Shown one piece after another: positions 1 through 8,869 of a stretch of 64,000 bases of DNA (positions are counted from its first letter, which is position 1; each line of letters opens with the position of its first letter). A program made the translations under genes and the position numbers. Source of the stretch: an uncultured Bacillota bacterium (GTDB lineage Bacteria; Bacillota; Dethiobacteria; DTU022; UBA8154); the NCBI GenBank assembly GCA_937973635.1, contig CALJJZ010000035.1, positions 10,812-74,811 on the forward strand. Reading direction: 5' to 3'. The notes below the pieces were generated by a model. That model had not been told where the DNA came from, made no database searches, and saw nothing but the letters and a program-made list of their open reading frames with translations.

Positions 1-544
1 GAGTGCCGTCAAGAATTTCCCGGTGCAAATACTGCATAAAAGAGCCGCGCTTTCCGAAGTAATTAACCCGCATGGCCAGATCGGCCAGTTCGTCTACACG
101 GCCGGCGGGAAGCCCCGTTACTTCGATTGCTATGGCCAGATCGCCTTTAAAGTAGCAAAGTTCCCTGTAAGCAATTGTCGGCACATAAAGGCCCCGCGGT
201 GCCTCCCGCTCTTCTTGTTTTACTTTTAAAAAGGTGTTCTGCACCACACAATAGGCAGGAGGCCGCAGCCTGATTTCCCTCGCCTTGATTAAATCAAAGA
301 CGGCATGGGCCCGGTTTAGGGCTTCCTCTTGGCCGTACATCCTGAAACAGGCGTCGATTAACGCCAGTTTTACCGCATAAGGAGTAGGCACAAAGAGCGT
401 TTTTCCCCCTTTGCTCGTAGCATGGGTCATGCGTAGGGAGAAGAAGGTGGTCGGTGCATAACTAATAATCAGCCATTTTTCTTTCTGCTCGTCTTTTTCC
501 TCTTCCAGGGGTGCTGCTTGTCTTAAGCCGATCTTTTTGGGCAT
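1..544 (-). CDS. cas5: Cas5-family RAMP protein, 5' part only (ATG at 544..542; the ORF runs off the window start)
   Basis: Manual translation of the minus strand from ATG 544 gives MPKKIGLRQAAPLEEEKDEQKEKWLIISYAPTTFFSLRMTHATSKGGKTLFVPTPYAVKLALIDACF...YFGKRGSFMQYLHREILDGT, an open frame of more than 180 aa. It starts 1 nt after the cas7 stop, and position and size fit the Cas5 slot of a type I module. The family call is tentative. Confidence 0.4.
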   Translation of the reverse strand, partial: MPKKIGLRQAAPLEEEKDEQKEKWLIISYAPTTFFSLRMTHATSKGGKTLFVPTPYAVKLALIDACFRMYGQEEALNRAHAVFDLIKAREIRLRPPAYCVVQNTFLKVKQEEREAPRGLYVPTIAYRELCYFKGDLAIAIEVTGLPAGRVDELADLAMRVNYFGKRGSFMQYLHREILDGT

Positions 545-545
545 C

Positions 546-1532
546 TTATTCACTCCAAGGCTGAACTGAGTTCGCGATCATGCCCATAATCTCGCTGAAG
601 TTCCCCATGCCAGAAAACTGCCATGTCTTTACCTTATCCCCTCCGGAAACCTTGTTCAGGTTGCGAGCAATGACCTCGATCTCCTCCAGGTAATTTTTAT
701 TAAGGGGGCTGAGCGTGGGGGCGGGCAAAGAAGAGAACGAAGCAGCCACCACCCCGCTGAAATCCAGGATATGGGGGTGCTGCGTATTCCTGTGAGCGCC
801 GCCAGGCTTGACAAAGGTATAGAGCACGCTGTTGAGCATGGCTTTAATGCGCTTGTGGCGCATCTCCTCGTCCAGATCGTAATTAAGGGTAATATCGTTG
901 CGTCCGATGCGGTAAAGGTCAATGTTGAGGACTACGGCATATTGACCGCTCGAGGCCGGCCGGTGGAAAATGTTCTGGCCGAGGTTCTGCTCCGAACCGG
1001 AGCCTGTGCCCCTGCCTTCAGGGACATATTTGGCGTGCATGTAGGTTTCTGTCCTGGTAACCTCCGGGCGGCCCACCACCCAACCGAATTCTATGCAGGA
1101 TTTCCTAGCCAGGGATTTGGAACCGGCCCAGCCCGTTAACAGGATACCTTCGCAATCGTCCAGCGTGCACGCCTGGATTACTCTGCTCAAGTTGTAAGAG
1201 TCAACCTTGCCCTGTTCTTTGGCCTTCTGGTATTCCGCGCTTTGTTCCACTTTTTCCGCCAGGGCGAAATCGCCGGCTATCCTGTTGGCGTCAAAGTGGC
1301 TGCATCCGCCGCACAGGGGAAGGGACGATACTTTGGCTTCCCTGAAAAGGTGCTCCGCCTGGATATGTTTAAACATATCGCCGGAGACCGCATTTACAGT
1401 GTAAAGGTTGCCGTCTTCACCCACGATTTCTACCATACGCGTCATCATGGTGTTCCCTTCGGAGCCTTCATTGTTCAGGGCATGTAAGTTCATCGTTACA
1501 AGGCCGGATATGGAGAGGGAATGGAGACGCAT
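546..1532 (-). CDS. cas7: Cas7 backbone subunit (Csa2/DevR-like RAMP)
   Basis: 328 aa. The N-terminal MNLHALNNEGSEGN motif is typical of I-A/I-B-type Cas7 (COG1857-like) and there is a Gly-rich RAMP loop. The gene lies between the cas8-like and cas5-like genes. Confidence 0.6.
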   Translation of the reverse strand: MRLHSLSISGLVTMNLHALNNEGSEGNTMMTRMVEIVGEDGNLYTVNAVSGDMFKHIQAEHLFREAKVSSLPLCGGCSHFDANRIAGDFALAEKVEQSAEYQKAKEQGKVDSYNLSRVIQACTLDDCEGILLTGWAGSKSLARKSCIEFGWVVGRPEVTRTETYMHAKYVPEGRGTGSGSEQNLGQNIFHRPASSGQYAVVLNIDLYRIGRNDITLNYDLDEEMRHKRIKAMLNSVLYTFVKPGGAHRNTQHPHILDFSGVVAASFSSLPAPTLSPLNKNYLEEIEVIARNLNKVSGGDKVKTWQFSGMGNFSEIMGMIANSVQPWSE

Positions 1533-1534
1533 CT

Positions 1535-3277
1535 TTAGATAACCTCCTTTTCTTGTTCCGGTTCTTCCGGTTCTTCTGTTTGTTCCTCTACCTGCACCTC
1601 TGTTTGCGGCTGTGCACTGCCCTCCTGTTTTGGCAGGCGGGCAAAGCCATAAGCGAGGAGGAGCATGCCCACCAGTTCGGCACCGTGCTGGTGAATAAGC
1701 GCAATCAGCTCGTCCAGATCACTCGCGCTTACCTTATGGCGCCTCCACCCGTCTCCTGGAGCTTTAACATCCAAGTTCTCGCTTTCCCAGTTATACTGTT
1801 GGACAAACTCTGCCAGGGCCGCAATGAATTCTTTATCCCCGCCCTTTATTTTCTGTTTCCATTTCTGCGCCAGGCCGAAGCGGACCTCCCTTTCAAATTT
1901 TTTCTGCTTCTGCGCCTGCAGCGCGTAGATCGTCGCCTCCCGCACCGCCCTCGCTATGCTCTGGAACCCTTTTTTTTCAATTATCCCCTGCATGTTATAC
2001 CCCCTTAGCATGATAGTATCCAAAATTCCCGCAGAGATCTTGATCACCCATTCATCCCTGCCCATGCGGTCCATAACATGGACGGCAAAATGATAGCAGA
2101 ACAATAAAAAGTCCTTGAGCTCGCCATTGGCCAGCCAGCGGCGAAACTGCTGCAGCACAGGCACATCATGGGAGCGATCCTCCCTTAAGGATTGCAGGCA
2201 GCCCGTCTCACCGTCTTTCTCTTTCCGCCCCACAAAGGAGCGGATAATCTTAAGGTAGGCGTTAGCATCCTCCCTGTCGTTAATGACAAACCAGGAAGGC
2301 AGGGCGGTGAAAGAATAATTCATTAAGGCCGCGGAAGTCCCCATGTTCTGGAAATAAGCCTGGTGCAAACCTCGCACCACATCTGCCGGCCGCCTGCTAC
2401 GCAGGGGGATGGGGTTGCCCAGCACGTCGGAATGCTGGATCAACAGCTCCGTCAAGCGCAGAGGTGTTTCAATATCCAGCATCAGCTTCCTCTTCCTCGA
2501 GATAACGATCCCGCGCAGCTCCCCACGCAGCTTTGACAAGGCGGAGAGGTAAATGTCTGCCGGCTCGATGACCAAGACCTTAAAGTCCCCGTCAAAACGA
2601 TAGGGGAGCATGGCCCGATAAGCACCGCGGTATTTTAACCACTCGGCAAAGGGATCCACAACTTCGCCCGAAATGCTGCCCGGAGCTGTGGAGTCAGGCT
2701 TCGGCCGGTGCACCCCTTTCCCGGAAATGGGGTTAAACACCTGGCTGTTGTTGACTTTAGGAGCTTCAGGGCTATATGCGCCGGGATCAAGGTTGGCTTT
2801 GATCCAGCGCGCCGCCCGTTTAAGATCTTCGCACAACCATAGATACAGCTGTTTGTCAGAAGACCAGCCTCTGCGCATCATCGCCAGGAAAAGGGCCATC
2901 TGGTACTCCGGGACCGGCGCCGGCGGCTCTTCCAGACCCTGAGCACGCAGCGCCTGGAGCATCTTCTCCCTCTTTTTGTCTGTGGCCAGGCGAAAATCCC
3001 GCTGGGCCTCGGCCTTTTTTCTCTCCTGCTCGTAGTCCAGCACCCAGCCGGCAGGCGGGTTGCCGTCTTTCGGGAGGTAGATAAAAGGGTAACCCGGCTC
3101 GATTTTTGGCCAATCTTCCACTGCCGCAGGGATCTCTTTGCCTTCCAGGACAAAGCGGTCGCCCGCCCCGCAGATACGTACACCGGCTCCGGTCAGCTCT
3201 TCCACCAGGCTCGCCATGCCTACTGCTTCCAGGACATCGGCATAGGTATTGGTCCGCTTGGGCACTACATAGTTCAT
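1535..3277 (-). CDS. cas8: Cas8-like large subunit candidate (start MNYVVPKRT at 3277; the ORF track's upstream extension to 3367 is probably not real)
   Basis: About 580 aa with no other recognisable domain, sitting between cas3 and cas7 as large subunits do. Its ATG overlaps the cas3 TGA (ATGA). The family call is positional. Confidence 0.4.
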   Translation of the reverse strand: MNYVVPKRTNTYADVLEAVGMASLVEELTGAGVRICGAGDRFVLEGKEIPAAVEDWPKIEPGYPFIYLPKDGNPPAGWVLDYEQERKKAEAQRDFRLATDKKREKMLQALRAQGLEEPPAPVPEYQMALFLAMMRRGWSSDKQLYLWLCEDLKRAARWIKANLDPGAYSPEAPKVNNSQVFNPISGKGVHRPKPDSTAPGSISGEVVDPFAEWLKYRGAYRAMLPYRFDGDFKVLVIEPADIYLSALSKLRGELRGIVISRKRKLMLDIETPLRLTELLIQHSDVLGNPIPLRSRRPADVVRGLHQAYFQNMGTSAALMNYSFTALPSWFVINDREDANAYLKIIRSFVGRKEKDGETGCLQSLREDRSHDVPVLQQFRRWLANGELKDFLLFCYHFAVHVMDRMGRDEWVIKISAGILDTIMLRGYNMQGIIEKKGFQSIARAVREATIYALQAQKQKKFEREVRFGLAQKWKQKIKGGDKEFIAALAEFVQQYNWESENLDVKAPGDGWRRHKVSASDLDELIALIHQHGAELVGMLLLAYGFARLPKQEGSAQPQTEVQVEEQTEEPEEPEQEKEVI

Positions 3278-5685
3278 TCTTTCACTCCTTCCGCTGTGCC
3301 CGCAGCTGTGCCTGCCTGATCTGCCAGGCGCAAGCGGCGGACAAGGTACCAGTATAGCGCCAGCCATTTACCGTCCTGCTCGTTGCAAGCCGCAATCAGC
3401 TCCCGGGCAAACTGCCCGCCCCGCATCGCTTCATCCGGCCGGTCCCACAAGCTATTAAGAAGGGGCAGGCCTTCCCGGGATAGGCATTTGTTTAAAGCGT
3501 CCGCAGCTGTGCCGTCAATGCTAAACGCCCCCAGTTTGAGCGCATGGCCGGCGTGGTGCCGGGCGATGGCGGTAATAATGCAGGCAGCCAGCTCCGGTGC
3601 TCCCTCAAAAGTTTGATACAGGTAAAGGCAAACGGCATAAGCCCCCTCCACCGCATGGGGCGGCCGCCGGGGGACGTCCCTGTCAGTTAAAGGGTCAAAA
3701 TCCAGGTGAGAAAGGGGGACAGGAGGTGCCCGGCCCGGCGTCTTCGATTCCTGGTAAGCCCTGGCTATGGACTGCCAGTCCACACTCAGTTTACCCGCAT
3801 CATGTAAAATACACGCCAAGAGGCCGGCCTGTTCCAGCTGCTCTTTTGTCAGCCCGAGGTTCCGGGCCAGTAGCTGCAACGTGCGGGAGTATCCTTGATG
3901 CTGAAGGCGATACTGTTGCAAAACGCGCTCTACGTGCTCCCCCATTGTCTCCATACGATAACGGTAGCGCCCAAGGGTTCCCCTGTCGCGATAGCGCAGC
4001 GCCGACCCGCCTCCCGGCCTTCCCAGGACAAGGCCCAGTTCGGCCGAATAAAAGGCGTATGCAGGGTTTATGGCCAGCAACCAGGCGCCCGGAATTGCCA
4101 CAACGTTTAGCTCGCGCCAGGTGAATTTGAGGGCATAATCTTCCTCCAAACCTGGATCCACAGCAAAGGGCGCTTTAACGACCCATTCAGATGATGGCTG
4201 TGCGGAGGCTTTTTGCAGAAACGACCGCATGCTGGAAACGGGTACGGACAACGTTGCAGGCCAGCTGCCCGTATGTTGGAGCTGGACGGCTTCAGGCTTG
4301 TCCGTAACGACCACATTAACGTTGTTAATGTCGCGAATCAGTTCATCACGGACGCTCTCCAGCCAGCCGTCCATGGCCTGGTTTACTTTGGTACGGCGCT
4401 GATACAAATTTTCATATACTTTCAGAAATTTAACTTCGCGGGCACCGAGGACTTTGTTGACCGCTGCCTGCTCTTCTCGCCAACTCCATACTTTGCCCGA
4501 CAACCCCTGCAGCAATGCCGCCGTCTCCTCCATCTCCTCTTTACTGTAAGGCGGATACCCCGACGCAGGAAAGACCGTGACTGTCCCCTCCCCTCCGTAA
4601 CGGGCACAGCGCCCGGCCCGCTGGACCAGGCTGTTTATGGGCGCAAGCTCAGAGTAAAGGCGCTCTACGGAAAAATCCATGCCTGCTTCCACCACCTGGG
4701 TGCTCACCAGAATAAAATTATCCGGTTCCTGCCAGCTGCCTTTACCCAGCCGCCGCTGCAGCTCCTGCTCCGTCTTTCCCCGGTCTTCGGGATAAAAACG
4801 GGAATGCAGCAGGCGTATCTCCGTAGTTCCAGAGGAGAGGCGGCAAAGCTCTGTATAGATCTCCTGAGCGCGGGAAACGGTATTGGCGATGACCAGCGTG
4901 CGGGATTGGTGAGCTTGCAAAATGTCCGCAAGGAATGATGGGCCTCCATCGGCAAACACCCATTTTCTGGCGGTCGGCTCCCCCTTTTTGCTTTCAATTT
5001 GAGCAATTTCCTCTACATCCAGGTCTATTGTTGTTGTACGGGGCAGTTTTTTCTGCAACCACTCTATGGCGCTATCGGATAAAGTAGCGGTCATGATTAT
5101 AAAATTACAGTAGCCAGACAACCTATCCAGCATCTCTATGGCCGTGCCCATGGAGCGCTGCGGATCAAGGAGATGAAACTCGTCAAAAACTACTAGGCTC
5201 CCCAACAGGGCCCCCGCGTTGATATTGGCCAGACGAAGGGGTAGCGACACCGGGGCCAAAAGATATGCGGAAAGAAGCTGATCAATGGTGGTAAAGATAA
5301 TATCCCCCTGAAAGAACGGGTCTTCCTGCTGTTCGCCGGTTTGCACCGTGACAGCAATACTGTGAATATTTTTATTCCCGCTGCTGACTGCCCGGCAGGC
5401 GTCCCGTGTTATTCCATATAGCTGCCCAGCCAGGGAGCGGAGCGGCAGGGAGTAGAGCACCCGGTCAAAAAGGGGCTCTCCCTCCACCCGGCCCAGTATA
5501 TACGGCAGCAGGGCCGCCCATGTTTTGCCTGCGCCCGTCGGCGCACGCAGGATCAGGTTTGTACCCGCTAGGACAGCAGCAGCCACCCTCTGCTGGTAGG
5601 GGTAAATAGAAATGTCATCCTTTTGCATTAATAAGCGGAAAAGGCGGTTTAATTTATCGTATAAGTTAGCTCTGTTCTCTACCAT
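3274..5685 (-). CDS. cas3: Cas3 helicase-nuclease with the HD domain at the C-terminus
   Basis: 803 aa. Walker A APTGAGKT and a DEFH motif II (VVFDEFHLLD) are in the N-terminal helicase. The C-terminus carries HD motifs (LLACILHDAGKL, AIARHHAGH). C-terminal HD placement is reported for I-U/I-G and some I-A variants. Confidence 0.8.
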   Translation of the reverse strand: MVENRANLYDKLNRLFRLLMQKDDISIYPYQQRVAAAVLAGTNLILRAPTGAGKTWAALLPYILGRVEGEPLFDRVLYSLPLRSLAGQLYGITRDACRAVSSGNKNIHSIAVTVQTGEQQEDPFFQGDIIFTTIDQLLSAYLLAPVSLPLRLANINAGALLGSLVVFDEFHLLDPQRSMGTAIEMLDRLSGYCNFIIMTATLSDSAIEWLQKKLPRTTTIDLDVEEIAQIESKKGEPTARKWVFADGGPSFLADILQAHQSRTLVIANTVSRAQEIYTELCRLSSGTTEIRLLHSRFYPEDRGKTEQELQRRLGKGSWQEPDNFILVSTQVVEAGMDFSVERLYSELAPINSLVQRAGRCARYGGEGTVTVFPASGYPPYSKEEMEETAALLQGLSGKVWSWREEQAAVNKVLGAREVKFLKVYENLYQRRTKVNQAMDGWLESVRDELIRDINNVNVVVTDKPEAVQLQHTGSWPATLSVPVSSMRSFLQKASAQPSSEWVVKAPFAVDPGLEEDYALKFTWRELNVVAIPGAWLLAINPAYAFYSAELGLVLGRPGGGSALRYRDRGTLGRYRYRMETMGEHVERVLQQYRLQHQGYSRTLQLLARNLGLTKEQLEQAGLLACILHDAGKLSVDWQSIARAYQESKTPGRAPPVPLSHLDFDPLTDRDVPRRPPHAVEGAYAVCLYLYQTFEGAPELAACIITAIARHHAGHALKLGAFSIDGTAADALNKCLSREGLPLLNSLWDRPDEAMRGGQFARELIAACNEQDGKWLALYWYLVRRLRLADQAGTAAGTAEGVKE

Positions 5686-5737
5686 AAAACCCTTTAATCT
5701 CCCGACAACCTCCTTTCACCGCTCCGCCGGCGAAAAT

Positions 5738-5767
5738 AATTTACAGAGTATTTATTATTTTAGCAAA
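5738..5767 (-). promoter_or_regulatory. Candidate sigma-A promoter for cas3 (minus strand TTGCTA-N18-TAAATT)
   Basis: Read on the minus strand, TTGCTA lies at 5767..5762 and TAAATT at 5743..5738, in the 135-bp gap upstream of the cas3 ATG (5685). The RBS AAAGGG sits 5 nt before the ATG. Confidence 0.25.
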
Positions 5768-5820
5768 ACCGGTGTGCCAAAGGCTGTCATACTGCCCTCA
5801 GGTGCGGCAATTTTTGTTTT

Positions 5821-6819
5821 TTAATGATTATAGTTGGCGTACGCCTGCTGCAGCTCGCTTCTTACCGCTGCGGCCAGTTCGGGCGGCGAGATGACCCGGG
5901 CCGCAGCCCCGAAGCTCAAAACCCAGCTTTTTACTTTCTCCAGGCCGCTTACGGTCAGCTCCATGATTAAAGAGCCGTCCTCCTGGAAAGAGAGCTTCTG
6001 GGAAGGGTGCCACTGCTTTTCTTTAATACGACGGGCCCGCTTGGGGCTGAACCATATCTTCACAAGGGAGGGGACGTTGCCCCGGAAAAACTGAAAGCTG
6101 TCCTGGAGGTAGACAGCTAGGTCGAAATCATCCTGCCGAAAAAGCCTTTTGCCGGCGGGGAACACTTCTTTAATACGGTCCAGAGCAAAGATCCGCATCT
6201 CCTGCCTTAGATGGCAGTACGCAATCAGATACCAGGCGCCGCGGAAATAGCGAAGGTGCAAGGGGTCAACGGTCCTTTTGGTTTCCTCGTCCCGGTCGAT
6301 GCTGTAGTGGACCATCTCCACGGCCTGCCTTTTGTTAATTGCCGCTCCAATAGCCGCAAAATTTTGCGCCACCTTTTCTTCCTCGCCCCTTAAGGGCTCC
6401 ACTTCAAACTCAACGTTTTCTGATATGTCGGCAAAGTCTACGGTGACGATCTCTGGTAGGCTGGCGCAGATCTTCTGAAAGGCCCTGTTGATTTCGCGTT
6501 CATACGGCCTGCCGGCGCATTTCTTTAAAAGGTTGTGGCCCAGGTACAGGGCAACGAGCTCCCCCTCGGTCAGCCGCACAAAGCGCAGGGAGAAGCCTTC
6601 TTCGGCATAGTAGTAACCTCGTTTCTTAGGGCAAAAGGCCAGGGGTGCACCCAGCCTGTCCCGCATAAACTCTACATCCCGCAGGATCGTCCTCCGGCTT
6701 ACTTCCAGCAGCTCCGCCAGCTGCCTGGAATTGGGATATTTCCCTTCTTTAATCATATTGTCAATGAAGTGCATCCTAGAGATAAAAAAGCGCCTCGTTG
6801 TCGTCTCTCCATCCGGCAT
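5821..6819 (-). CDS. WYL-domain transcriptional regulator (N-terminal HTH, WYL, C-terminal extension), CRISPR-associated by position
   Basis: 332 aa. The HTH segment is NSRQLAELLEVSRRTILRDVEFM and the WYL signature is WYLIAYCHLRQEMRIFALDRIKEV. It is encoded between the cas6-like gene and cas3 on the same strand. Confidence 0.75.
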   Translation of the reverse strand: MPDGETTTRRFFISRMHFIDNMIKEGKYPNSRQLAELLEVSRRTILRDVEFMRDRLGAPLAFCPKKRGYYYAEEGFSLRFVRLTEGELVALYLGHNLLKKCAGRPYEREINRAFQKICASLPEIVTVDFADISENVEFEVEPLRGEEEKVAQNFAAIGAAINKRQAVEMVHYSIDRDEETKRTVDPLHLRYFRGAWYLIAYCHLRQEMRIFALDRIKEVFPAGKRLFRQDDFDLAVYLQDSFQFFRGNVPSLVKIWFSPKRARRIKEKQWHPSQKLSFQEDGSLIMELTVSGLEKVKSWVLSFGAAARVISPPELAAAVRSELQQAYANYNH

Positions 6820-6872
6820 GGCCTCCTGCCCCCTTGCTGTCGAATTATGGCGAAATACAGCGAAAAATATTG

Positions 6873-6884
6873 CGGAATATTCCG
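6873..6884. promoter_or_regulatory. Perfect 12-bp palindrome CGGAATATTCCG in the promoter region of the WYL gene (candidate operator)
   Basis: Seen directly. It is 54-65 bp upstream of the WYL regulator ATG (6819, minus strand), within an AT-rich 145-bp intergenic region. Confidence 0.35.
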
Positions 6885-6964
6885 ATTTTTTATTTTCTGG
6901 TTGTTTCCTCTTATTTTGTTAAATTTCGCCATCCAGCCAGTAATTCCTTCTTTAAAAAAGGGCG

Positions 6965-7951
6965 TTATCCCTGAAAATTTTTTGTTTGGTTAAGCTCGGT
7001 TAAGCAAAAAAAAAGGCGGTATTTGCCCAGGCCAAAGACGGTGTTTTTGCCCACGTGGAGATGTTCGCCCAGAACTAAAAAGGGCAAAAATTCGTCCAGC
7101 GCGCCTTCATAGACCACGGCCCCCAACAGACCGCCCATGCTCAGGCGCTGTTTCTGGCGGCGGGAGTAGCGCTCCCACTCGTGCCAGCGTGTCGTATCCT
7201 CTGTCAGAGTTACTTCCCGGGAGCGTGCAGCCAAGCCGGGATAATCCACGGCAAGCTGTACCCCCTGGTGAAAATAGGCGAGGGCGGAGATGCGGCGCAG
7301 AGCTTGGCGGAAAAAGACGTGAAAATGCGGCCGATAGACAATTTTGCCGCCGTCTTTTAGCTGCAGGGGCGTATCGAAAACGACGCGCAGGCGGGCTGCC
7401 TTCGCCGGAGAGCGCTGCAGCAGCTGGGCGCCGCTGTACGACAGATCCAAGTTTTTAATCACCCCCGTTGCCGCTGTATAGAGCTCCGCCTCCTCTTCCA
7501 AACCACAGGCAGTTACCTCTTCCAGGGTAAAGGGCCGTCGCCCCTGGCCCAGGCCAGCTGCACCCATTTCACGAAAAACAAGGATAAAGTAAGGCAGGAA
7601 GTTGATGGCGCGGCCAATTAAGAGAAGATGGAAGGGGATGGTTTCTCCCGCGAGGTAATCCTTTCTTGTCTCCAGGGGGGGCTGGAGGACAAAGGGGCGG
7701 GGGATACTTTCATATTTGCGCAGGGCCGTAGCCTCAGGGGGCGGGGCAGTTTCAAAGATATAGGCATAGGGGCATTCTTCCCGCAAACCGCAGCCATGGC
7801 AGTCCTGCTGGTGCACAGCGCAACTGATACGCCGAAAAACAGAGCCAAAACCTCCCCGGAAGGTGGCTCCCTTGTAGGGGGGCAGAACCAGGCCCTCCGG
7901 CCCTGCCTTGATATTGAAACGAAAACGCGCTAGACGAAAATTTGCAAACAT
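6965..7951 (-). CDS. cas6: Cas6-like RAMP endoribonuclease candidate with an inserted four-Cys cluster
   Basis: 328 aa. The N-terminus LARFRFNIKAG...LPPYKGATFRGGFGSVFRR resembles Cas6 beta1-alpha1. The Cys cluster reads C-x7-C-x2-C-x5-C (CAVHQQDCHGCGLREEC). The C-terminal Gly-rich loop GKNTVFGLGKY fits the Cas6 G-loop. It sits immediately upstream of the WYL-cas3 block. Confidence 0.45.
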   Translation of the reverse strand: MFANFRLARFRFNIKAGPEGLVLPPYKGATFRGGFGSVFRRISCAVHQQDCHGCGLREECPYAYIFETAPPPEATALRKYESIPRPFVLQPPLETRKDYLAGETIPFHLLLIGRAINFLPYFILVFREMGAAGLGQGRRPFTLEEVTACGLEEEAELYTAATGVIKNLDLSYSGAQLLQRSPAKAARLRVVFDTPLQLKDGGKIVYRPHFHVFFRQALRRISALAYFHQGVQLAVDYPGLAARSREVTLTEDTTRWHEWERYSRRQKQRLSMGGLLGAVVYEGALDEFLPFLVLGEHLHVGKNTVFGLGKYRLFFCLTELNQTKNFQG

Positions 7952-8104
7952 AGCTCTTCACCATTTACCTGTATATTTTTTGTCGGTCGGTTTGCATACC
8001 CTCCTGGCTCCAGAACAGTTATATATTTCCATTTAGCCCGGTTCTTTTCCTCCCCGGCCCCTAAAATTTTAGCTGCCGCACGGCATAAGCCGCATATCTC
8101 CTTT

Positions 8105-8869
8105 TTATCCGGGGCAGGGGATTTCCACATCCAAAATCTGGGAAAAGCCCTGAAAAAGGGCTACGGCAAGCTCGTCGACAGAGACAAAGTAGCCCAGGTC
8201 ATAGAGGCCCGCCCCCTTTTGCGCCAGCCTCTCTAGGTACGCCTTTTTCTCCCGGGGGCCGGGGAATTTGAGGACTTCAGCATAGAGCTCCGGGGAGAGG
8301 GTGAGGAGGATGGAGCCGTGCTGCAAGAGGACCCCCCGGCGGCGCAACTGGGCGCTGCCCGCCACTTTTTTGCCCCGGACCTGGAGCTCGTAAGGGGAGG
8401 GGGCATCAAAACAGGCCCCGGAGGTAAGCCTCCGCCCTTCTTTTTTCGCCGGAGCCAGGGAGGGGTTTATACCCAGCAGGAGGAAAGCCGCCACCAGCCC
8501 CCCGCTCAAGTACCTGTATGCGCCCAGCACGTCCCGGGGCAGGCAGGGATAGTTTTCGGGGAGGACAATGCTGTAGGTCAGCTCGCTGTGGTGCAGGACG
8601 GCCCTGCCTCCGGTGGGACGCCTGACCACATCAATGCCGAGGCGGCGGCAGGCCTGGCGATCCACCACCGTTTCCTCCTTCTGCAAGAAGCCCAGGGAGA
8701 GGGCCGGCGGAGACCAGCGGTAGAGACGCAGCGTAGGAGGCGCCTCGCCGGCAGCCACAGCTTTCATTATCTCCAGGTCTTTCTCCATGTTCACCCTGCC
8801 GGGCAAGGGCGGATCATAGAGACCCTGCCAGCACTCTTTTGCCATATCCGGCCTCCTTTCCTGCGACAC
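8105..8869 (-). CDS. Lipoate/octanoate-protein ligase family protein (BPL/LPL catalytic domain)
   Basis: 254 aa. Family-level resemblance to LplA/LipB-like catalytic domains (RLYRWSPPALSLG..., GRRLTSGACF...). Confidence 0.55.
   Translation of the reverse strand: MSQERRPDMAKECWQGLYDPPLPGRVNMEKDLEIMKAVAAGEAPPTLRLYRWSPPALSLGFLQKEETVVDRQACRRLGIDVVRRPTGGRAVLHHSELTYSIVLPENYPCLPRDVLGAYRYLSGGLVAAFLLLGINPSLAPAKKEGRRLTSGACFDAPSPYELQVRGKKVAGSAQLRRRGVLLQHGSILLTLSPELYAEVLKFPGPREKKAYLERLAQKGAGLYDLGYFVSVDELAVALFQGFSQILDVEIPCPG

Follow-up and report, generated by a model that had tools for sequence, protein, structure and literature searches.

Two groups of described type I CRISPR-Cas systems, subtypes I-A and I-G, bear most directly on the locus analyzed here. 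In canonical I-A operons cas3' directly precedes cas3'', and a split cas3 and a separate csa5 (cas11a) gene are usual features of that subtype; in type I-G the gene order is cas3, large subunit, cas7, cas5. The I-G large subunit, Cas8g, has been reported to be similar to Cas8a2 and to have a C-terminus like Cas11, and Cas3 has been reported as a stable component of Cascade in both I-A and I-G (PMC9638904). Internal translation of cas11 has been demonstrated in types I-B, I-C, and I-D (McBride et al. 2020 preprint, doi 10.1101/2020.04.18.045682), in a study that counts I-A among the systems with their own cas11 gene and did not find a conserved internal start in I-G cas8; Cas11b of an archaeal I-B system provides a further precedent for internal translation (PMC11899642). 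Here, we analyzed a 64,000-nucleotide stretch of DNA from an uncultured Bacillota bacterium (contig CALJJZ010000035.1, positions 10,812 to 74,811; hereafter the window), which begins with a type I effector block. We conclude that positions 1-7951 of the window most probably serve interference, as one half of a composite CRISPR-Cas locus, and belong to a compact, mostly bacterial lineage that arose from, or is sister to, type I-A.

Six co-directional open reading frames (ORFs) on the minus strand occupy positions 1-7951, and all six are real genes. Profile matches support the initial annotation of this DNA, which had recognized a type I effector block of six minus-strand genes at these places. 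The Cascade genes expected of a type I system are present, with a cas8-type large subunit, cas7, and cas5 in addition to cas6, as judged by profiles and, for Cas8, by fold. The features of the block, in the direction of transcription, are as follows.

6965..7951, minus strand: cas6, a free-standing, AF1859-like endoribonuclease for CRISPR RNA (crRNA) processing, 328 aa
5821..6819, minus strand: helix-turn-helix (HTH)-WYL-WCX transcription regulator, 332 aa, between cas6 and cas3
3274..5685, minus strand: cas3, one 803-aa protein in which the helicase precedes the HD nuclease
4486..5610, minus strand: superfamily 2 helicase core of Cas3, residues about 26-400
3301..3957, minus strand: C-terminal HD nuclease domain of Cas3, residues about 577-795
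1535..3277, minus strand: cas8, the large Cascade subunit, 580 aa, with a Cas8a-like core and a Cas11a-like C-terminal helical domain
1999..2006, minus strand: Shine-Dalgarno-like motif AAGGGGGT within cas8, 5 nt upstream of the codon 429 ATG
1535..1993, minus strand: predicted nested cas11, an ORF inside cas8 and in frame with it, from Met429 to the stop, 152 aa
546..1532, minus strand: cas7, the Cascade backbone subunit, 328 aa, Csa2/DevR family
1..544, minus strand: first 181 codons of cas5, which continues beyond the left end of the window

The start of cas8 was placed at the ATG at 3277 on the basis of 30 homologues; a program-made ORF list had given 1535-3367. Direct reading of the junctions confirmed the tight coupling that had been proposed for these genes: an ATGA overlap joins cas3 and cas8, the TAA stop of cas8 is followed after a 2-nt gap by the ATG of cas7, and the TAA stop of cas7 is followed after a 1-nt gap by the ATG of cas5. 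Position 7951 is treated as the right boundary of the locus; the next ORF (8105-8869) was judged not to be cas-like from its translation, which was read by eye without comparison with family libraries.

The locus was extended and compared with relatives in two ways. Leftward, searches with Cas7 and Cas1 led to a 12.5-kb metagenomic contig (L001/L059; hereafter L059), which can be used to extend the locus because it differs from positions 1-2148 of the window by 1 mismatch in 2148 nt. In addition, one genome per species was scanned for related loci, and the ORFs of the 53 loci so obtained were searched with the proteins of the window. The order cas3-cas8-cas7-cas5 is present in all 53 species-level loci wherever the contig permits, and no gene lies between cas8 and cas7 in any of them.

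The proteins of the effector block indicate type I-A. Cas8 is matched by the PADLOC Cas8a profile (2.2e-44) and by no Pfam or NCBIfam model. Neither Cas8 nor Cas5 had a match when the PDB was searched by sequence, so that Cas8 was placed by comparison of folds, in which type I-A proteins are the top structural matches for both of its parts. Cas7 contains the LHALNNEG motif and is matched by Pfam DevR (2e-68) and by the NCBIfam DevR family TIGR01875 (84.4 against a cut-off of 67.3); its only sequence matches in the PDB are the Csa2 chains 3ps0 and 9cp1. The 5' part of Cas5 in the window matches PADLOC Cas5a (1.7e-56) and no Pfam or NCBIfam model, and the full protein on L059 (264 aa) is Cas5a from end to end (220 bits, profile positions 1-220 of 221). 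Cas6, described as free-standing in the initial annotation, is indeed a separate 328-aa gene, and it matches PADLOC Cas6 (2.7e-104, residues 4-313) and Pfam CRISPR_Cas6 (PF10040, 7e-19); its orthologues in related loci also bear Pfam AF_1859_N, and AF1859 is the Cas6 of the Archaeoglobus I-A locus. In the N-terminal half of Cas6, residues 44-60 (window 7772-7822, minus strand) form a four-cysteine cluster, CAVHQQDCHGCGLREEC, possibly a zinc-binding insertion, and the AF_1859_N matches of the orthologues cover this region.

In place of the split cas3'/cas3'' pair of type I-A, the window holds one 803-aa ORF. The C-terminal HD domain that had been noticed earlier was verified by a match of cas3_HD (TIGR01596) to residues 583-793 that lies above cut-off (45.9 bits against 43.45), and NCBIfam cas3_core matches residues 44-393 (3.4e-52). 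The helicase motifs (Walker A APTGAGKT at 48-55, DEFH at 168-171, and QRAGR at 355-359) and the HD residues H584, H628-D629, K632, H660, H677, H710-H711, and D789 are at least 95% conserved among 51 orthologues. Among solved structures, the helicase part is most similar to stand-alone chains of Cas3 helicases (8wtk, followed by 7tr8 and 7r2k, the last from an entry that bears the title of a type I-A Cascade). With a profile of the HD domain, stand-alone Cas3-HD proteins rank first (8wth, 7tra/7tr8_Q, 7r2k_Q, and 3s4l), and fused Cas3 proteins of other subtypes rank below them. By sequence, both halves of this Cas3 therefore appear nearest, among solved proteins, to the split Cas3' and Cas3'' chains of the I-A type, several of which come from I-A-titled entries. 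Because cas3' precedes cas3'' in canonical I-A operons, an in-frame fusion of the two genes would yield precisely the helicase-then-HD order seen here.

This architecture is a property of the family. A large Cas3 family was recovered (506 cluster representatives at E < 1e-30), the best 150 of which are all colinear with the helicase followed by HD, and the same colinear protein of ~800 aa is present in about 50 related loci. In the related loci Cas3 is a single protein, apart from one interrupted gene and from genes that a contig end truncates. Two loci showed further peculiarities. The metagenome-assembled genome (MAG) of an Actinomycetes member (L018) carries at 4998-7280 an extra Cas3-like helicase ORF (761 aa, with no HD match) directly upstream of a regular fused cas3, and in a Bryobacterales MAG (L035) cas3 and cas7 are each in two ORFs, probably through frameshifts or assembly errors or as a decaying copy.

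When compared with described type I-A systems (7tr8, 9cp1/9cro, and 7r2k), the locus shares the Csa2/DevR Cas7, the Cas5a, the AF1859-like Cas6, a csa1 gene that adjoins cas4, a small-subunit fold that is predicted to be Csa5/Cas11a-like, and a Cas3 whose helicase and HD parts are each nearest to stand-alone chains, several from I-A entries. It differs from them in the joining of Cas3' and Cas3'' in one polypeptide, in the lack of a csa5 gene, the Cas11a-like module being instead the C-terminal part of Cas8, where an internal start is predicted, and in the arrangement of the genes as one compact operon in the order cas3-cas8-cas7-cas5. Unlike the archaeal I-A Cascade, the family is also mostly bacterial, with 1 archaeal member among the 53 loci.

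These features raise the question of whether the locus instead represents type I-G (formerly I-U), as a regular member or as a variant. As in I-G (8b2x), the Cas3 helicase comes first and HD last, no separate cas11 gene exists, and the gene order is that of I-G. The large subunit also has the composition reported for Cas8g, a Cas8a-like part at the N-terminus and Cas11-like helices at the C-terminus (PMC9638904). Three observations, moreover, weigh against an I-A assignment. Among NCBIfam models, the best match over the full length of Cas3 is the I-G model TIGR02621 (2.8e-58), and the PADLOC Cas3g model spans residues 14-645; the PDB matches of Cas3 include none labelled I-G, so that they offer no I-G Cas3 for comparison; and the I-A-specific Csa2 model TIGR02583 gives Cas7 92 bits, under its cut-off of 212.6. 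The I-G model, however, scores 198 bits, only half its cut-off of 400, and ten sampled Cas3 proteins of the family score 164-222. In addition, Cas8, Cas7, and Cas5 show no match at E <= 0.1 to Csx17, Csb1, or Csb2. The fusions of I-G are missing as well: Cas5 (264 aa, matching Cas5a only) and Cas6 (328 aa) come from separate genes 6 kb apart, and L059 and the relatives have cas1, cas2, and cas4 as individual genes, without a Cas4-Cas1 fusion. Finally, the predicted internal start described below is conserved in this family and reported to be absent from I-G cas8 (doi 10.1101/2020.04.18.045682). Based on these comparisons, we regard an I-G identity as improbable and reject it as a reading of the locus.

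Thus, the proteins do not bear out the mixture of subtype signatures that had been proposed for the block: the signals of Cas8, Cas7, Cas5, Cas6, Csa1, and both halves of Cas3 all indicate type I-A, and CRISPR-specific profile libraries already recognize the system as I-A by its protein families. The mixed appearance stems from the organization only, that is, from the fused Cas3, the lack of a cas11 gene, and the gene order shared with I-G, and it is in this respect that the locus departs from canonical I-A. The refutation envisaged in the initial annotation holds by half: the hidden Markov models agree on one subtype (I-A), but the Cas3 architecture is unusual for that subtype.

The second usual I-A feature that the locus lacks is a separate small-subunit gene. 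No csa5 or cas11 gene is present, and cas7 directly follows cas8 in the window and in every related locus. This absence had been overlooked in the initial annotation, and we find that the small subunit is probably encoded inside cas8. The N-terminal edge of the Cas11-like domain of Cas8 reads CTAAGGGGGTATAAC ATG, in which the ATG encodes Met429. The codon of Arg425, two codons ahead of a Tyr, is AGG in 29 of 32 genes, compared with 1-12 of about 40-50 at other conserved Arg sites and with a share of 18% for AGG among all Arg codons in the cas8 genes of the family. For Gly426 the codon is GGG in 31 of 32 genes, whereas conserved Gly sites elsewhere use it in 5-17 of about 40-50. At the alignment position of codon 429, 44 of 50 family genes have a Shine-Dalgarno-like motif with an ATG or GTG after it, at the inter-helix break where the Cas11-like domain begins; at positions more than a few residues away such a combination is found in at most 5 genes, with a mean of 1.8 when all sampled positions are counted. 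In divergent members, the archaeal one included, AGGAGG or GGAGG and an ATG lie a few codons away despite differing amino acids. The 152-aa product of the nested ORF is predicted by modeling to fold like Csa5/Cas11a.

Cas11 is known to arise by internal translation in I-B, I-C, and I-D, and the motif and start are conserved here; we therefore predict a nested cas11 at positions 1535-1993 of the window, and consider it probable that this gene is real. The likeness to I-B, I-C, and I-D lies in a conserved internal ribosome-binding site and start within the large-subunit gene and in a predicted product with a Cas11 fold; the difference lies in the host gene, here a Cas8a-like one, and in the product, which is predicted to be Csa5/Cas11a-like. 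A fused Cas11-like domain has precedent, because an earlier comparative paper described some I-A large subunits (Cas8a1) with a longer C-terminus and no small-subunit gene; no report of the internal start was found in the literature. Separately, residues 552-580 of Cas8 (window 1535-1624, minus strand) form a disordered, strongly acidic tail, …EVQVEEQTEEPEEPEQEKEVI, with a predicted local distance difference test (pLDDT) score below 50. This tail would also end the predicted Cas11, and its length differs among homologues.

Some observations count against an internal start at Met429. Six of the 50 genes, the most divergent of all (Brevibacillus, Tumebacillus, and others), are without the motif and start at this position, and Arg-Gly-Tyr is also kept as protein, which means that some of the nucleotide conservation reflects amino-acid constraint, although this does not account for the codon bias. 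The case for initiation there is one of sequence conservation. It could be, then, that the system works without a nested gene, the Cas11-like domain acting only as the C-terminus of Cas8 and the AGGGGG motif arising for some other reason, such as a translational pause or RNA element; types I-F1 and I-G manage with a fused small-subunit-like domain (PMC9638904; doi 10.1101/2020.04.18.045682). Against this stand the pairing of the motif with a suitably spaced ATG or GTG in 44 of the 50 genes, at an inter-helix break, and its retention with ATG in divergent members whose amino acids vary. Moreover, a Cascade with spacers of ~35-39 nt, the length deduced for this family, would need several small subunits, as type I complexes generally do. 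We consider the absence of a nested gene unlikely, and a Cas11 translated from within cas8 remains the explanation that we prefer.

The family to which the window belongs is widespread. At least 169 Cas8 homologues were found, and among the matches listed those named by their source are called "hypothetical protein." The 53 loci come from Bacillota, Actinomycetota, Nitrospirota, Brocadiaceae, other Planctomycetota, and Acidobacteriota, and further from Omnitrophota, Chthonomonas, Deltaproteobacteria, Bacteroidota, and one Methanosaeta MAG. The nearest relative is in a Dethiobacter MAG (80% identity), and other Bacillota hosts are Desulforudis sp. Tu-874, Brevibacillus, and Tumebacillus. Around the four-gene core the content varies: homologues of cas6 were found near cas3 in 31 of the 53 loci, of the WYL gene in 11, of cas1 in 37, of cas4 in 23, and of csa1 in 11, and about 8 of the 53 have type III genes within 10 kb. 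The sole archaeal locus, in the Methanosaeta sp. MAG (L049), has the fused cas3 and the predicted nested cas11, with AGGAGG and ATG at the equivalent place, and a Cas8 that is 36% identical to that of the window, which suggests inter-domain transfer.

CRISPR arrays are present in relatives, where 21-62 uniform repeats directly follow csa1 or cas4. The usual repeat of the family is 37 nt long and ends in GGGGACTGAAAS; with a repeat spacing of 71-76 nt, the spacers are about 35-39 nt. Members from Nitrospirota and Brocadiaceae have 30-nt repeats ending in ATTGAAAC. More broadly, in a clade of loci L022-L034 (Nitrospirota, Brocadiaceae, Omnitrophota, and Endomicrobia) the repeats are of 30 nt and end in GGAATTGAAAC rather than being 37-nt repeats ending in GGGGACTGAAAS, and no homologue of the Cas6 of the window was detected within 10 kb; this clade may depend on another Cas6 or on one whose gene lies elsewhere. 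When the arrays of Brevibacillus fluminis (L051) and Desulforudis (L019) were compared with 50,697 phage records by megablast, no match was found, and no protospacer-adjacent motif was derived. Folding of four family repeats gave a weak 4-bp stem only, not better than that of shuffled sequences.

The 30-nt repeats ending in ATTGAAAC are one of the features that would fit a type I-B variant. Systems of that subtype are common in Bacillota and also have a free-standing Cas6. In addition, they have a cas11 nested in cas8, a trait of I-B, I-C, and I-D (doi 10.1101/2020.04.18.045682). The proteins, on the other hand, give little room for this reading: a Cas8b profile has no match at E <= 0.1 among the effector proteins, no Cas5b match was obtained, and Cas7b gives Cas7 a weak, partial match of 3.2e-6 as against 2e-68 for DevR/Csa2. 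Cas5 is Cas5a over its whole length, Csa1 is present, and both parts of Cas8 have I-A proteins as their top structural matches. The Cas3 architectures also disagree, as the HD domain is C-terminal here and I-B Cas3 profiles put the helicase after an N-terminal region of ~200-290 residues. An I-B variant is thus very improbable, and it was rejected in favor of a lineage from or sister to I-A.

The left end of the window lies within cas5, and L059 shows what comes after this gene: a III-B cmr module, a CARF-nuclease remnant, csx15, cas1, cas2, cas4, and csa1. The III-B module is complete (cmr1, cas10, cmr3, cmr4, cmr5, and cmr6 at L059 2468-9021), and its 571-aa Cas10 has mCpol and palm-domain matches and no HD-domain match listed. 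An ORF of 101 aa at L059 9005-9310 matches just the last ~95 positions of the profile of a CARF-PD-(D/E)xK nuclease (5e-33) and, from its sequence, looks like the truncated remnant of an effector activated by cyclic oligoadenylate. It is followed by a csx15 gene at L059 9316-9696 (4e-40). Csa1, at L059 11763-12539, matches Cas4a/Csa1 of subtype I-A/APERN (6.8e-44) and is cut by the end of the contig. About 7.4 kb of type III genes thus separate cas5 from the adaptation genes. The initial annotation had presumed the array and cas1, cas2, and cas4 to lie to the left. The three genes are there, not adjacent to the effector block but beyond the cmr genes, and no array is seen by the end of the 12.5-kb contig, which ends inside csa1.

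Nor was a CRISPR array found anywhere in the 64-kb window by a direct-repeat search, by a k-mer array finder, or by a search for the repeat core AGGGGACTGAAA with 1 mismatch, which extends to the whole window the earlier observation that the first 8 kb hold none. Rfam and tRNA scans of the window also gave no matches. The missing array, in the window and on the overlapping contig, together with the truncated CARF-nuclease in the adjoining type III part, could be taken to mean that this is a decaying or orphan effector block that has no array of its own and has lost immunity. Such decay would leave unexplained that all six ORFs are intact with coupled junctions, that Cas3 retains all helicase and HD catalytic residues, and that adaptation genes are present. 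In close relatives, furthermore, the array directly follows csa1, exactly where the contig ends. We find the odds strongly against a decaying orphan block and reject this reading too, in favor of the interference half of a composite locus.

The gene between cas6 and cas3 encodes a protein with Pfam matches to WYL (9.3e-23), WCX (6.8e-21), and HTH_11 (1.9e-5) and a match to the PADLOC profile of CRISPR-associated WYL proteins (4.3e-43), so that it resembles CRISPR-associated WYL regulators in its HTH, WYL, and WCX architecture as well as in this profile. Judging by these domains, it probably controls transcription of the operon. The gene is accessory and not part of the core, because only 11 of the 53 related loci have a homologue, which either precedes cas6 or lies between that gene and cas3. 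Two pairs of inverted repeats are present in the intergenic stretches 6820-6964 and 5686-5820 on either side of the WYL gene. One pair (6847-6865 and 6914-6932, ATGGCGAAAT...ATTTCGCCAT) is upstream of the WYL gene, the other (5730-5740 and 5754-5764, GCGAAAATAAT...ATTATTTTAGC) is upstream of cas3, and both contain the core GCGAAA(A)T. The two pairs are candidate WYL operators; such short repeats can occur by chance. A scan of 5500-8300 for promoters and terminators gave none above the expectation from shuffled sequence.

Based on these results, we infer the following course of interference. Cas6 would cleave the precursor crRNA, and the 37-nt repeats of relatives, ending in GGGGACUGAAAS, would leave an 8-nt 5' handle. 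On the crRNA, Cas5, a filament of Cas7 (Csa2), and the Cas8a-like large subunit would assemble into Cascade, and several copies of the Cas11a-like protein, made from the internal ribosome-binding site and ATG at cas8 codon 429, would form the minor filament. Cas3, as a fusion of the I-A Cas3' helicase and Cas3'' HD nuclease, would nick and unwind the non-target DNA strand upon R-loop formation; by analogy with I-A and I-G, it is likely to be a stable component of Cascade. Its translation would be coupled to that of cas8 through the ATGA overlap, and transcription of the operon would probably be regulated by the WYL protein. Because the III-B module and cas1-cas2-cas4-csa1 come after cas5 on the same contig, the type I-A-like and III-B effectors probably share Cas6, crRNAs, the adaptation genes, and an array further left.

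We did not find this variant described: the main text of the 2025 classification update is silent on it, and older classification papers may hold an earlier mention. The window itself is an ordinary member of the variant family, and nothing in it overturns the understanding of type I systems; the prediction of a nested cas11 and the position of the family between I-A and I-G are useful and testable. This type I system, found in 53 species-level genomes, is easily overlooked because its Cas8 and Cas5 have no Pfam or NCBIfam match and only the CRISPR-specific PADLOC profiles recognize them. The conserved internal Shine-Dalgarno motif and ATG imply a hidden cas11, so that reconstitution of Cascade from the annotated genes would have to preserve this site. 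The unit is compact, with 4-5 genes that include cas3, and is present in cultured bacteria such as Brevibacillus and Tumebacillus, which are mesophiles; it could serve as a relative of type I-A that is easy to work with. Archaeal I-A systems have been reported as already in use for diagnostics (PMC11246428).

The combination of I-A-type proteins with the Cas3 architecture and gene order of I-G bears on the relations among type I subtypes. A bolder proposal, which we put forward only tentatively and think less likely to hold than to fail, is that the family is a distinct, undescribed type I lineage that bridges I-A and I-G, with I-A-type proteins, an I-G-like Cas3 and layout, and a nested cas11 as in I-B, I-C, and I-D. 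If so, it would merit a variant or subtype label of its own, and internal translation of the small subunit would be extended to the I-A branch. Such a lineage would also suggest an origin for type I-G, through further fusion of cas5 with cas6 and of cas4 with cas1 and loss of the internal start.

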